A stretch of 18,349 nt of DNA from IMG/VR virus record IMGVR_UViG_2654587685_000017, positions 1 to 18,349 of that record; one strand, given 5' to 3'. This DNA comes from a virus. Its lineage: Duplodnaviria; Heunggongvirae; Uroviricota; Caudoviricetes. Within the stretch, counting starts at the first letter, position 1. Each line of letters starts with the position of its first letter. Made by a program: the position numbers. Positions 12,001 through 18,000 of this stretch are shown piece by piece.

Positions 12001-15000
12001 GGAAACATGAATAGAGCCCTTTCACCAATGGTTTCTGAATTTGAAACCATTGAACAAGAAAACAGTTACAACGAATGGCTGCGTGCGAAAGTAGCAACGA
12101 GCCTTGCAGATCCGCGCCCAGCAATTCCCCATGACGAAGTTGAGCGCAGAATGGCAGAACGCTTTGCTAAGATGCGCAAGGAACGGAGCAAGCAGTAAAA
12201 TGTTACCCGTGTTATGGCTTGAAAGCGCAGATACCGACCTAGATGATATAACTAGTTATATTGCTCGTTTCGACATAGATGCGGCTGAACGCTTATGGCA
12301 GCGATTAAGGGGTTGTGTGCTGCCGTTATCCGAACATCCGTATTTATACCCACCAAGCGACAGAGTACCTGGCTTGCGTGAGATTGTAGCCCACCCTAAC
12401 TATATAATTCTATACCGCGTAACAACATCAAGCGTTGAAGTAGTAAACGTGATCCACGCAAGACGCCAGTTTCCCTAACTTTCACTACCAATAGAAACAT
12501 AACAACCGCAACGACTTTATCAAAAGCGTTGTGTTTGTTATGTCCCGCGGTTTAGTTTTTACTTGACTTAAGTTTAATGTTTATTAAACTAAAAATACCA
12601 ACCCACCCCGCCCCACAGAACGCAGGGAAATACTTCGAGTTACCCGGCAGTGGTCAGGGGTTAAGTAGCCAGCCCGAGGCGTATGAACATGACGGCAGGG
12701 TTCAACTTTAATAACTATGCAGCAGGTTTTTGTTCCGCTACCCCGGCGTTAAGGGGAAACAGAGGGTTTCTCAGTGGGCGAAGTCAAACATCAGAATGGA
12801 AGGCATCCCGGGATCGGCAAAGAAGCAGCAATGGCGCTTTATATTGACATCAGCGCCATTGCAGGACAGGTAAGAGTTATCAGAGCGGTAACTAAGCGGT
12901 ATGCGCCTTTACTTCAGAAAGTCTCTGGTGAGTGCACCGAAGATATTGTCAACGATTTCGTCATCGAACTGCGAGGACTCATCTTCAGTTACAAGGTGAC
13001 CACAATTTTTGCAGATGGCTCCCGCGAAACTGTCAGAGCCCTGCGGCTTAAAGGATGTGTCAAAGACTTCGCCACCACATTCTGGGCAAGAAAACTTGAT
13101 TGTATTCATAACCAATTTCCTCTCGAGTAACAGACCCCTCAGAGGATACCACCTCGCCTGACGTGGTTAAAAGCAGGCAACGCTAACCACAAGGAGCCGA
13201 CATGCAGAAACGAGAACCCGTCATCATCGCGCCAGACTATACCGATGATGAACTTTATGAGTGGATGCACCAGAAAATTAATGCAGCGCAGGATCTGAAA
13301 TGGGCCAATGAAGCCAGGGCTAAGCAGGCTGAAAATCTGTCCGCTCTGGAGCAGGATATCACCAATCTGGAAAAAGCAGCGGCATTAAGCATTGCCAGAA
13401 TGATTACATACCCGCGTTAATAGCTAACCAACGAAGCTAAGGTTGGTAATTAAGGAGTTCTCCACGGGTGAGGTGGAGTGCGTGCGCCGGACACGGGTGA
13501 GCATACGGCACTGACAGTTTACTGAAAGGATATTTCCCTGAAAAGTCAGACCATAACGCGAAAGCGCACGGCGAGGTAGCTGGTTCATAGATAGCCTGTC
13601 GTTAAATTTTCGTCGACCGTGCGCTTCCGGTTGTGGCAATCCGCGAAATGGCGCGGCGGTAAGTATGGAGGGGTTATTCCTTCCCCCGTTGAGGACACCG
13701 GGTTGTCAGGTTGACCATACGCTTAAGTGACAACCCCGCTGCAACGCCCTCTGTTATCAATTTTCTGGTGACGTTTGGCGGTATCAGTTTTACTCCGTGA
13801 CTGCTCTGCCGCCCTTTTTAAAGTGAATTTTGTGATGCGGTGAATGCGGCTGAGCGCACGCGGAACAGTTAAAACCAAAAACAGTGTTATGGGGGGATTC
13901 TCTGTATCCGGCGTTAATTGTTAACTGGTTAACGTCACCTGGAGGCACCAGGCACCGCATCACAAAATTCATTGTTGAGGACGCGATAATGAAAACGTTA
14001 TTACCAAACGTTAATACGTCTGAAGGTTGTTTTGAAATTGGTGTCACTATCAGTAACCCAGTATTTACTGAAGATGCCATTAACAAGAGAAAACAAGAAC
14101 GGGAGCTATTAAATAAAATATGCATTCTTTCAATGCTGGCCCGTTTACGTCCGATACAAAAAGGATGCTGCACAATGAATACAGCATTTGCACTTGTTCT
14201 GACAGTTTTTCTTGTTTCCGGAGAGCCAGTTGATATTGCAGTCAGTGTTCACAGGACAATGCAGTAGTGTATGACTGCAGCAACCGAACAGAAAATTCCC
14301 GGTAACTGTTACCCGGTCGATAAAGTTATTCACCAGGATAATAACGAAATCCCGGCAGGTCTTTAAAACAGTTCCGTAATAAATATCCGGTTTCATTCTT
14401 ATATGCCAGCAATGGCAGGGATTTGTTCACCCTTAAATCTGTAATGAGGTTAAAACAAAATGAGTAAAGTCTTTATTTGCGCCGCCATTCCGGACGAACA
14501 GACAACAAAGGAAGAAGGCGCAGTCGCTGTAGCCACAGCCATTGAAGCCGGCGACGAACGCCGCGCCCGAGCAAAATTTCACTGGCAATTCCTGGAACAT
14601 TATCCGGCTGCTCAGGACTGCGCTTATAAATTTCTTGTCTGCGAGGATAAACCCGGCATACCCCGCCCTGCCCTCGATTCATGGGATGCTGAATATATGC
14701 AGGAAAACCGCTGGGATGAGGAGTCTGCTTCCTTTGTCCCGGTTGAGACTGAATCAGATCCGATGAACGTCACTTTTGACAAGCTGGCCCCTGAAGTACA
14801 GAACGCTGTCATGGTTAAGTTCGACACATGTGAAAACATCACCGTTGATATGGTGATTAGCGCGCAGGAATTGTTGCAGGAAGACATGGCAACATTCGAC
14901 GGACATATCGTTGAAGCGTTGATGAAAATGCCAGAAGTTAACGCCATGTATCCGGAGCTTAAGCTGCATGCCATCGGGTGGGTTAAGCATAAATGTAAGC

Positions 15001-18000
15001 CTGGTGCCAAATGGCCCGAAATTCAGGCAGAGATGCGCATCTGGAAAAAACGTCGCGAAGGTGAACGCAAGGAAACCGGAAAATACACGTCTGTTGTTGA
15101 TCTCGCCCGCGCCAGAGCCAATCAACAGAACACTGAAAATTCAACAGGAAAAATCAACCCGGCCATTGCTGCCACTCATCGCGAATACAAGCAGACATGG
15201 AAAACACTGGATGACGAACTGGCCTACGCTCTCTGGCCTGGTGATGTGGATGCCGGAAACATTGACGGCAGCATCCATCGCTGGGCAAAAAATGAAGTTA
15301 TCGACAACGACCGCGAAGACTGGAAGCGTATCTCGGCATCAATGCGCAAACAGCCTGATGCCCTTCGCTACGACCGCCAGACTATTTTTGGCCTTGTCCG
15401 TGAACGTCCGATCGACATTCACAAAGACCCTGTGGCACTGAACAAATACATTACTGAATACCTGACTACAAAGGGCGTGTTTGAAGATGAAGGAACAAAT
15501 CAGAGCGCAACTGATACTCTCTCGTCGCCAGTACCAGAAACTGATGCAGTGGAAACGGCGATTCCGGACAACGAAAAAACCGAATGCAAAGTGGAAGTCG
15601 AAGCATCTGTAGAGCGTGAGGGGCCGTTCTACTTCCTCTTCACCGACAAGGATGGCGAAAAATACGGTCGCGCAAACAAACTTTCTGGTCTGGATAAGGC
15701 GCTGGCTGCCGGGGCTACTGAAATCACGAAAGAAGAATATTTCGCCCGCAAAAACAGTACATACTCAGGTTCACAACAAAATACTGGTGCATCTGACACG
15801 ACCGCACAACCAGAGCCGGTAAAAGTTACCGCTGACGAAGTAAACAAAATTATGCAGGCAGCCAATATCAGCCAGCCTGACGCCGATAAGTTGCTTGCTG
15901 CCTCTCGCGGAGAATTTGTTGCAGGGATCAGCGACCCGAATGATCCGAAATGGGTTAAGGGGATCCAGACCCGCGATTCTGTAAACCAGAACCAGCAAGA
16001 AACGGAACAGAACGACCAGAAAGCGGAACAAAACAGCCCAAATGCGTTACAAAACGAGCCAGAAACGAAACAGCCTGAACCAGTGGGGCAACAGGAAGTG
16101 GAAAAAGTCTGCACCGCCTGCGGTCAGACCGGCGGCGGCAACTGCCCTGATTGTGGCGCAGTGATGGGCGACGCAACATACCAGGAAACATTCGATGAAG
16201 AGTATCAGGTTGAAGTTCAGGAAGATGATCCGGAGAAAATGGAAGGCGCTGAACATCCACACAAGGAGAACACTGGCGGCAATCAGCATCACGATAGCGA
16301 TAATGAAACTGGCGAGACGGCAGATCACTCAATTAAGGTGAACGGTCATCAAGAAATCACATCCACCAGCAGGACGTGTGACCATCTAATGATCGACCTT
16401 GAAACCATGGGAAAAAATCCTGATGCCCCGATCATCTCAATAGGTGCAATATTTTTCGATCCGCAAACCGGAGATATGGGACCGGAATTTAGTAAGACTA
16501 TCGATCTGGAAACTGCTGGCGGAGTCATTGATCGGGACACCATTAAATGGTGGCTTAAACAATCACGCGAAGCGCAATCTGCCATTATGACCGATGAAAT
16601 CCCGTTAGATGATGCACTGTTACAATTGCGGGAATTTATCGACGAAAACTCCGGTGAATTTTTTGTTCAGGTCTGGGGAAATGGAGCCAACTTCGACAAC
16701 ACGATTTTGCGCCGTTCATACGAACGGCAGGGGATCCCCTGCCCGTGGCGTTACTACAACGATCGCGATGTACGCACAATCGTTGAGCTGGGGAAAGCCA
16801 TAGACTTCGATGCCAGAACGGCTATTCCATTCGAAGGTGAGCGCCATAATGCACTTGATGACGCCCGTTACCAGGCAAAATACGTTTCAGTTATCTGGCA
16901 AAAACTGATCCCGAGTCAGGCTGATTTTTAATGTTCAACCGTCGCCAGTTGTCGTTGATATTCTGCAACTGGCGCGTTCCGGAGTGATAGCCATGAGCGA
17001 ACAGTACCTGATAACGCTCGACGAGTGGAAACCAAAACGGTTCAGTCTCCCAATAACAAACACTACCCTGGTGAAATACGGAAAACTAGGATACATCGTT
17101 CCAAGACCACAAAAAATTCGTGGGCGTTGGCTGATAGATCGCCGAGCAGTATTTGTTGGGCCTGGTGAAACGGGAATTGCGCCGGAAATTCATACTGGCG
17201 ATGATGATGCACTGAAGGAGATTTTAACTCATGTCACCGAGGCCACGAAAAAACAGCACTGACGTAGCCGGTCTTTACGAAAAGTTTGATCGCAGAACTG
17301 GCAGAGTTTACTACCAGTATAAAAATCCTGTGACTGGAAAATTTCACGGACTCGGAACAGACAAAGGTAAGGCAGAAAAAATCGCTTCCACAGCCAATCA
17401 GCGGATAGCTGCAGCAGAAGCTGAATATTTCATGCGCAAAATTGATGAAAGTCCGTCAGCAACAAAACGTCGGGGTATCAGATTAAAGGCATGGGTTGAT
17501 CGATATCTGAAAATACAGGACACGCGACTGAAAAATGGAGATATTGCAGCTACAACTCACAAAGAAAAAACTCGAATGGCTGCATACCTGGTTTCCCGTC
17601 TGGGAAACCACCCATTGAAAGAACTGGAAGTAAGAGACTTTGCATTAATACTGGATGAGTGGCTGGATAAAGACATGGTCAGCACAGCGAGAGTAAATCG
17701 TGGATTATGGGTTGATATTTATAAAGAAGCACAGCATGCAGGGGAAGTTCCTCCTGGATGGAATCCTCCGGAGGCTACCCGTAAACCGATCCCTAAAGTA
17801 ACCAGAGCCAGGCTCACCATGGAAGACTGGAAAAAAATTTACAATGCAACGCCTGAAAAACACTTTATCCGTAACGCAATGCTTCTTGCGATTGTTACTG
17901 GTCAGCGCCGTGATGACATTTGCCACATGCGTTTTTCAGATGTGTGGAACGAACACTTGCATATCACCCAGGGAAAAACCGGAATGCGTCTGGCGTTACC

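Follow-up and report, generated by a model that had tools for sequence, protein, structure and literature searches.

What does a lambdoid prophage gain from a large protein that resembles RecE in its centre, ends in a nuclease of predicted opposite polarity and is encoded without an annealase partner? The question is raised by a gene in an 18,349-nucleotide sequence of the Caudoviricetes (IMG/VR record IMGVR_UViG_2654587685_000017), the whole of which is referred to here as the window. The gene lies just upstream of xis and int, in the slot where the Rac prophage has recE and recT, and the original prediction described its product as a chimera of the N-terminal and central regions of RecE with a DEDDh 3'-5' exonuclease. 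The protein is the full-length, intact form of YdfE, since its amino acids (aa) 1-235 are 96% identical to the product of the IS2-truncated ydfE gene of Escherichia coli K-12, and only its centre is RecE-like. It belongs to a modular family in which the type of nuclease and the presence of recT are completely associated across several N-terminal contexts. The gene and the parts of its product are as follows:

14460-16931, plus strand: intact YdfE-type exonuclease gene, matching PHROG 2082 over residues 1-823 of 823; a 99.3%-identical gene is named "3'-5' exonuclease" in RefSeq
14460-15164, plus strand: N-terminal domain YdfE_N (PF27430), aa 1-235, made up of an alpha/beta subdomain and, after it, a helical bundle
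15192-15479, plus strand: five-helix middle domain YdfE_C (PF27432), aa ~245-340, from phmmer domain mapping, an alignment of 48 homologues and AlphaFold2 (AF2) confidence scores (pLDDT) of 95-97
15621-15764, plus strand: small beta-hairpin/helix insert, aa 388-435, with AF2 pLDDT of ~95 for aa 390-435
15885-16334, plus strand: RecE-like segment, aa 476-625, zinc ribbon and acidic tail, ~85% identical to RecE 459-591
16110-16157, plus strand: zinc ribbon CxxC-x7-CxxC, aa 551-566, read from the sequence; its RecE counterpart is CNACGQTGGDNCPDCG
16383-16898, plus strand: DEDDh 3'-5' exonuclease domain, aa 642-813, Rv2179c-like/DexA (Pfam PF16473)

The open reading frame (ORF) list of the window gives a complete coding sequence of 823 aa plus stop, with an ATG start, at exactly the coordinates and on the strand originally predicted. 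Over aa 1-256 the protein is 96% identical to the product of the K-12 Qin pseudogene ydfE (b1577), and the two loci share the order ydfC-dicF-dicB-ydfD-ydfE-(int); the K-12 gene, however, is cut by IS2E after residue ~256 and is without the middle, zinc-ribbon and exonuclease parts. The assignment of PF27430 and PF27432 was made via the annotation of a 97%-identical homologue (P0001), which bears both families together with PF16473. The middle domain is the core of all family members, including RecE (aa ~255-350), and the motifs TLD.E.A, AK..I, W..LR and PGIL.YSR are common to the 48 aligned homologues. The insert at aa 388-435 lies between two acidic linkers and has no counterpart in K-12 RecE, where the alignment has a gap. 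In the full-length AF2 model the N-terminal, middle and small insert domains are good, while the zinc-ribbon region and the DEDDh domain are poor; the poor regions reflect a shallow alignment, and no structural inference on the nuclease was taken from this model.

The relationship to RecE (exonuclease VIII) of Rac is confined to the centre of the protein. By BLASTP against K-12 RecE, YdfE aa 262-625 aligned with RecE 278-591 (E=2e-62), and homology can be followed over YdfE ~245-625 and RecE 255-591. Identity varies strongly along this stretch, from ~20-30% at aa 236-350 to none at aa 351-470 and ~85% at aa 476-585, where blocks of 31/35 and 34/40 identical residues are found. The homology ends sharply at YdfE aa 625/626, corresponding to RecE 591/592, before the DUF3799/PD-(D/E)XK nuclease domain that occupies aa 615-850 of K-12 RecE, within a C-terminal nuclease region taken as RecE 606-866. 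The NCBIfam equivalog of RecE (PRK09709, exodeoxyribonuclease VIII) was matched only in part, with YdfE aa 235-625 on profile positions 258-602 of 877 and a score of 284.5 bits against a cut-off of 1269. At the N-terminus of K-12 RecE is Exonuc_VIII (PF06630, aa 2-178, 6e-98), whereas a Pfam search of YdfE gave no match to this family at E<=1, and none to DUF3799, whose place is taken by the DEDDh domain. The two proteins are therefore alike in their early-left slot just upstream of xis-int, their homologous helical middle domain (RecE ~255-350), their near-identical zinc-ribbon/acidic segment and their size (866 aa in RecE, 823 aa in YdfE). They differ in the N-terminus (Exonuc_VIII versus YdfE_N), in the C-terminus (a 5'-3' PD-(D/E)XK versus a 3'-5' DEDDh nuclease) and in the recT gene, which lies downstream of recE but not of the window ydfE. 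The shared segment at aa 476-625 is predicted to be disordered (AF2 pLDDT <50), and aspartate and glutamate make up 21% of aa 500-640. The acidic centre with CxxC...CxxC that had been recognized from Rac RecE is thus borne out, as is the replacement of PD-(D/E)XK by DEDDh; the postulated RecE N/central region holds for the central part, but not for the N-terminal part, which is YdfE_N.

The C-terminal domain was matched by the full PF16473 profile (2-177/177) on aa 642-813 with E=2e-67 and 226.7 bits, against a gathering cut-off of 27, while RNase_T gave a weak match under its cut-off; of the two kinds of profile hit originally anticipated, it is the Rv2179c-like one that is strong. Exo motifs are found at aa 644-651 (MIDLETMG), aa 740-750 (the second motif, GANFDN, with D746) and aa 796-804 (HNALDDARY), and all five predicted catalytic residues are present (D646, E648, D746, H796 and D801). 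The first three align with D7, E9 and D119 of T4 DexA, whose catalytic residues are listed in PMC12153337; H796 and D801 were assigned via the motif and an alignment with the EcD-like protein described below. The only significant PDB sequence matches of the domain were those to T4 DexA (8KEL/8KEN, E=6e-8), with no significant match to other solved DEDD nucleases. DexA is, like YdfE, a phage-encoded 3'-5' exonuclease of the Rv2179c-like DEDDh subfamily with the five catalytic residues aligned. However, it is a stand-alone protein of 227 aa from a virulent phage, with extra loops, whereas in YdfE the domain is C-terminal in a protein of 823 aa, and DexA residues S87 and W152 (tetramer switch and 5-hydroxymethylcytosine (5hmC) recognition) are Pro and Tyr in YdfE.

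Another relative is EcD (HREX), an E. coli homologue of DexA (Kang et al. 2025), which is reported to digest 5hmC-containing T4 DNA but not unmodified double-stranded DNA, and to protect E. coli from T4 when carried on a plasmid (PMC12153337). An EcD-like protein of 189 aa was recovered from viral contigs via the published EcD forward primer and has Ala at position 78, as in PMC12153337; the 3' end of its gene fits the printed EcD reverse primer except for one extra A in the primer. This protein is 38% identical to YdfE aa 644-816 (E=4e-34), the identity extending over the whole domain, and both are prophage-borne and encoded in early operons. EcD differs from YdfE in being a stand-alone protein of P2-like prophages, in having Trp at the W152 position, and in its anti-T4 activity, which was shown for EcD only. 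It also differs at the DexA D90 position, which is Ala78 in EcD but Asp (LDDAL) in YdfE, so that the loss of the tetramer-forming Asp seen in EcD is not found in YdfE. DexA W152 aligns with YdfE Tyr766, with Trp763 three residues upstream, and D782 and D784 lie near the DexA D169 position, where the alignment is uncertain; W152 and the acidic D169 are the DexA residues tied to 5hmC recognition in PMC12153337. The EcD-like gene occupies positions 6401-6991 of contig L039 (with counterparts in L018, L023, L033 and L036), where it is an early-operon gene of a P2-like prophage, in the order int / cox ... DUF4761 ... EcD-like / Dam methylase / DUF4406 ... gpA. The EcD that Kang et al. 2025 describe in bacterial defence appears, then, to belong to the early operon of P2-like prophages. 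With YdfE in a lambdoid element and the L039 gene in a P2-like one, exonucleases of the DexA kind turn up repeatedly among the early genes of temperate phages that are unrelated to each other.

The modularity of the family was examined by mapping eight query segments, four from YdfE and four from K-12 RecE, on long representatives and fetched loci. Two N-terminal types, a common middle domain and C-termini of three or more kinds are combinatorially shuffled among its members, which gives the following architectures:

YdfE_N, middle domain, zinc ribbon and DEDDh: the window ydfE
K-12-type RecE N-terminal half, zinc ribbon and DEDDh: P0128, in a Rac-like prophage with xis-int next to it
Mixed N-termini and DEDDh: P0122, P0141, P0245 and P0136
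YdfE_N, middle domain and PD-(D/E)XK: P0131 and a 987-aa ORF of L009
RecE-type N-terminus and PD-(D/E)XK: RecE, P0252 and L015
YdfE_N, middle domain and C-termini of ~300 aa that match no sequence in Pfam or the PDB: members assigned to PHROGs 2489/7838 ("exonuclease") and 26058 (unknown)

The five-helix middle domain (aa ~245-340) is the sole element found in all architectures. The ~300-aa C-termini are borne by P0125, P0129, P0135, P0138, P0155, P0166, P0185 and P0188 and by the ORFs at L012 5341-7614 and L013 5341-7602, and no recT was found downstream of these versions in L012-L014. They may be further effector modules or may correspond to the "RecE-2" proteins of Zheng et al. 2025, described there as having no recognizable nuclease (PMC12315714).

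In the window, xis and int follow ydfE directly and no recT lies between ydfE and the prophage end, as the original prediction had stated. An annealase of any known family, RecT included, is excluded in the window operon, because between ~11550 and int the plus strand has no ORF of at least 150 aa other than ydfE. The same separation is seen across relatives. Among 80 IMG/VR loci with a RecE-type middle domain, which are closely related prophages, 69 encode PD-(D/E)XK, 1 encodes DEDDh and 10 have no nuclease domain; recT was found downstream in 68 of the 69 (the remaining one lies on a contig that stops too soon) and was absent from the DEDDh locus and from the 10 nuclease-less ones. It was also downstream of four of four further PD-(D/E)XK genes (L005, L009, L015 and K-12 Rac), which brings the PD-(D/E)XK loci with recT to 72 of 73. 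None of the 80 IMG/VR loci with a YdfE-type middle domain had recT (0/80), nor did the DEDDh versions of L006-L008, L010, L174, mEp460 and Tritos; in the fetched loci outside the two IMG/VR sets, recT followed none of four intact DEDDh genes and was also missing after the pseudogenized copy of L011. Because this link between recT and nuclease type holds across relatives, the originally suggested role other than RecET-type recombination is well founded. Four Rac-like elements (L124, L126, L129 and L148) carry a RecE-like ORF of ~646 aa with no recognizable nuclease domain, and no recT despite ample flanking sequence; these ORFs could be deletion derivatives or nuclease-less variants.

Narrow as a family, YdfE is nonetheless extremely abundant in E. 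coli. By megablast, 3533 of the 5426 complete E. coli genomes (~65%) contained at least 80% of the ydfE gene, with a median of 2 places and a maximum of 10 places per genome with any match. A full-length homology search returned more than 7900 near-identical E. coli clusters without diversity, while an exhaustive search with aa 1-640 against 1.84 billion representative proteins found 251 clusters only. The nine loci from a profile search of genome contigs were all from Enterobacterales (Escherichia, Shigella, Erwinia, Pantoea, Enterobacter and Citrobacter). The gene is also found in the sequenced phages mEp460, Tritos, HannyBb and PhiR42_1 and in PPompW prophages beside Stx2a phages, and RefSeq names it "exonuclease" or "3'-5' exonuclease", in some cases "3'-5' exoribonuclease". 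Of 80 viral contigs sampled, 61 retain the 823-aa frame unbroken. The gene is under purifying selection, with an overall ratio of nonsynonymous to synonymous substitution rates (dN/dS) of 0.08-0.29 against four homologues. Between close homologues the segment-wise dS ranges from 0.016 to 0.47 inside one gene, which fits mosaic recombination. The view of this protein as an unusual chimera of this one window must be given up, as it is among the commonest E. coli prophage proteins, is annotated, and is covered by a PHROG (2082) and by Pfam families of its own. Databases and, in outline, the 2025 literature already contain the gene, the domains that compose it and its status as "nuclease-only"; literature searches on Rv2179c and ydfE turned up no functional study of YdfE.

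In strain fS25a, the near-identical prophage sits beside potC and is a lambdoid element of the Qin/Rac-like kind. In the window, the minus strand carries cro-like/YdaS, YdaT, replication, RusA, Q-like and methylase genes, and the plus strand carries, from ~11550, a PaaA2/ParE toxin-antitoxin pair, ydfC, DicF, dicB, ydfD, the exonuclease gene, xis and int. The genes next to ydfE are:

13763-14367, plus strand: upstream early-left operon genes from DicF to ydfD (Rfam, Pfam DicB and DUF1482, alignment with K-12, fS25a and Tritos)
13763-13814, plus strand: DicF small RNA (sRNA; Rfam, 76.7 bits)
From 13989, plus strand: dicB (Pfam DicB)
From 14176, plus strand: ydfD (Pfam DUF1482)
16984-17262, plus strand: excisionase gene, directly 3' of ydfE (Pfam Exc; the near-identical prophage L001 has the same annotation)
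17231-18349, plus strand: lambda-type tyrosine integrase gene at the prophage end (Pfam Arm-DNA-bind_1 and Phage_integrase; potC adjoins in a related genome)

The order DicF-dicB-ydfD-exonuclease-xis-int is common to the window, K-12 Qin and the viable phages mEp460 and Tritos. A crude promoter scan found no sigma70-like promoter on the plus strand from 12590 to the ydfE start codon. Because of this gene order and because no promoter of its own was found, ydfE is most simply read as part of a repressor-controlled early-left operon. In the stretch 13989-14367 both toxic genes, dicB and ydfD, are mutated in the window, and the exonuclease gene next to them is intact. In dicB a 1-nt insertion before the stop codon (GGATGCTGCACAATGA versus GGATG-TGCACAATGA in K-12 and Tritos) causes read-through into the ydfD frame, and ydfD has a GAG-to-TAG nonsense change at about codon 31. 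In addition, the DnaC/IstB-like replication ATPase ORF at 9061-9570 is only 169 aa long, its counterpart in L001 (10604-11344) has an internal stop in RefSeq, and the TerB-family gene of L001 is a pseudogene. The window prophage is probably defective.

The recombination strategy of lambdoid phages offers a possible context for ydfE. In the survey of lambdoid Rec modules by Zheng et al. 2025, DnaQ-like 3'-5' nucleases are described inside modules or near int, and phages without Rec modules are proposed to depend on RecBCD and Chi (PMC12315714). Table 1 of that survey includes a Tritos class of four phages, listed with a nuclease but with no annealase, single-stranded DNA-binding protein (SSB) or anti-RecBCD function, and with 7-21 top-strand Chi sites (PMC12315714). 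The Tritos nuclease gene TRITO_27 is ydfE, with 94.8% nucleotide identity to the window gene and the same neighbours; the main text of PMC12315714, however, gives no domain dissection or nuclease type for Tritos. The window contains 11 Chi octamers (GCTGGTGG) in 18.3 kb, compared with 0.59 expected from shuffles, at positions 1662, 2884, 2890, 3683, 3704, 4021, 5453, 5505, 10951, 16363 and 18179; seven are on the minus and four on the plus strand, and one (16363-16370, minus) is inside the exonuclease gene. This excess fits the Chi-rich lambdoid class without a recombinase of its own.

It is very probable, judging from relatedness and conserved motifs, that YdfE has the architecture described here and acts as an exonuclease. 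In the proposed mechanism, ydfE would be transcribed together with dicF, dicB and ydfD only upon lifting of the repressor or upon infection, and its product would be a Mg2+-dependent exonuclease that takes nucleotides off DNA 3' ends. For the N-terminal and middle modules, also found in fusion with 5'-3' nucleases, the proposed contribution is targeting or assembly, not catalysis. During lytic growth YdfE would trim linear DNA of phage or host from its 3' ends, cooperating with the host RecBCD/RecA pathway and not with a phage Red or RecET system. T4 DexA performs a comparable trimming of 3' ends in double-strand-break repair and host DNA scavenging. Lytic-phase trimming is taken as the most likely role because Tritos and mEp460 are Chi-rich and have no annealase or recognized RecBCD inhibitor, but as a role it is advanced tentatively, at rather less than an even chance. 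The statement as a whole, that an intact YdfE is a 3'-5' DNA exonuclease trimming ends in the lytic phase together with host RecBCD/RecA, is likewise a plausible proposal that falls somewhat short of being probable.

Several considerations weigh against this role. The E. coli genome has a Chi background of about 1 per 4.6 kb, over which the density in the window is raised only ~2.7-fold, and the 7:4 strand bias of the Chi sites is weak. The recT counts come from related elements and are not independent. The substrate preference suggested for YdfE has sequence relatedness as its sole basis, the AF2 model of the DEDDh domain is poor, and the name of the Pfam family to which this domain belongs refers to an exoribonuclease. 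Expression from the early-left operon only was deduced from gene order and a crude promoter scan. Finally, a role in favour of recombination is not obvious, because 3'-5' exonucleases normally antagonize recombination by destroying 3' tails, as discussed by Zheng et al. (PMC12315714).

Other explanations for the presence of ydfE were considered. It is possible, though unlikely, that YdfE is an HREX-type defence or a weapon between phages, with its DEDDh domain degrading the modified-base (5hmC, T-even) DNA of superinfecting phages and so protecting the lysogen or the induced cell. The reported digestion of T4 DNA and plasmid-borne protection from T4 by EcD (PMC12153337), together with the 38% identity of the EcD-like protein to YdfE aa 644-816 (E=4e-34), would agree with this, as would the intact state of ydfE beside the damaged dicB, ydfD and DnaC-like genes and its presence, often in several copies, in ~65% of complete E. 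coli genomes. However, the features of 5hmC specificity are not reproduced in YdfE (Asp at the D90 position, Tyr766 for W152), the single PADLOC match was not a real one (E=0.024 over 23 residues), and EcD itself appears to belong to the early operon of a P2-like prophage and owes its defence phenotype to plasmid expression. In addition, ydfE lies in a repressor-controlled operon with the toxic dicB and ydfD, has no detected promoter of its own and is probably silent in the lysogen. A nuclease of counter-defence or host takeover, which would destroy host nucleic acids with free 3' ends early in the lytic cycle, is rather improbable; envisaged targets are retron or reverse-transcriptase cDNA, guide or primer oligonucleotides, and host DNA fragments for scavenging. 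The early-operon position of ydfE, the scavenging of host DNA established for T4 DexA as described in PMC12153337, and the recurrence of DexA-like exonucleases early in unrelated temperate phages (lambdoid; P2-like L039) would suit such a nuclease, but nothing in the window ties ydfE to a particular defence system and no target is known, degradation of the host chromosome is not known from temperate lambdoid phages, and the RecT-coupled nucleases of RecE type found on this same scaffold would be left unexplained. The defence or counter-defence role offered in the original prediction is thus possible but not supported, and the position in a repressed early-left operon argues rather for the lytic phase.

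A function on RNA, such as maturation or turnover of DicF or other operon transcripts by a 3'-5' exoribonuclease, is suggested by the naming of PF16473 for the Mycobacterium tuberculosis exoribonuclease Rv2179c, by the "3'-5' exoribonuclease" names of some RefSeq entries, and by DicF, an sRNA processed from the same transcript 650 nt upstream of ydfE. It is nevertheless very unlikely, considering that the two T4 DexA entries are the only significant PDB matches, that the nearest characterized relatives (DexA and EcD) act on DNA, and that the domain takes the place of a DNA exonuclease at a position devoted to DNA recombination; moreover, K-12 makes DicF despite its IS2-truncated ydfE, so the exonuclease is not needed for it. 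Lastly, ydfE could be pictured as a decaying recE remnant without function, its nuclease and recT lost by illegitimate recombination, and the defective state of the surrounding prophage and the sharp identity breaks of a mosaic protein would be in keeping with that. This explanation is effectively excluded by the frame, intact in 61 of 80 viral contigs and in the viable mEp460, Tritos, HannyBb and PhiR42_1, by the complete set of catalytic residues and the dN/dS of 0.08-0.29, and by the joining of the DEDDh module to several different N-termini.

Some further features of the window lie outside the exonuclease gene and its immediate neighbours. The early-left operon starts with a block of three genes at 11552-12478, comprising an ORF of 144 aa to which no Pfam family matched and the genes for an antitoxin of PaaA2 type (PF21217) and for a ParE toxin; the block resembles the PaaR2-PaaA2-ParE2 system of O157:H7 prophages, and the 144-aa first ORF may be a regulator or repressor. 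Antisense within the operon, between the ParE gene and ydfC, the minus strand encodes a 68-aa double-CxxC zinc-ribbon protein of the RefSeq ECs_2282 family (12909-13115). RNA and tRNA features were found at 1351-1540, 2240-2490 and 6741-6916, namely an STnc100 sRNA (132 bits), a pair of tRNA genes on the upstream side of the DNA methylase gene, and a sok antitoxin RNA beside a hok-type toxin region.

The modular-scaffold idea and the clean correlation with recT are the main value of these findings. One reading of the pattern, which we regard as doubtful, is that YdfE_N or the RecE N-terminus together with the middle domain forms a common delivery or assembly platform for exchangeable nucleases of opposite polarity, with PD-(D/E)XK working with RecT, DEDDh without it, and at least two further uncharacterized C-termini. 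If this were true, the DEDDh version would represent a second phage recombination strategy, without an annealase, that prepares ends for RecBCD-Chi-RecA. A large N-terminal part of RecE (~600 residues) is dispensable for recombineering, and such a platform would also explain its purpose. The findings bear as well on the claim that DexA-like exonucleases are bacterial defence genes, as EcD and YdfE are both early genes of temperate phages. YdfE is among the most widespread E. coli prophage proteins, including those of enterohaemorrhagic (EHEC) lineages, and was probably overlooked because its K-12 copy is truncated. The modular pattern provides a handle on the role of the large N-terminal part of RecE and on the recombination-dependent growth of Chi-rich lambdoid phages that have no recombinase.

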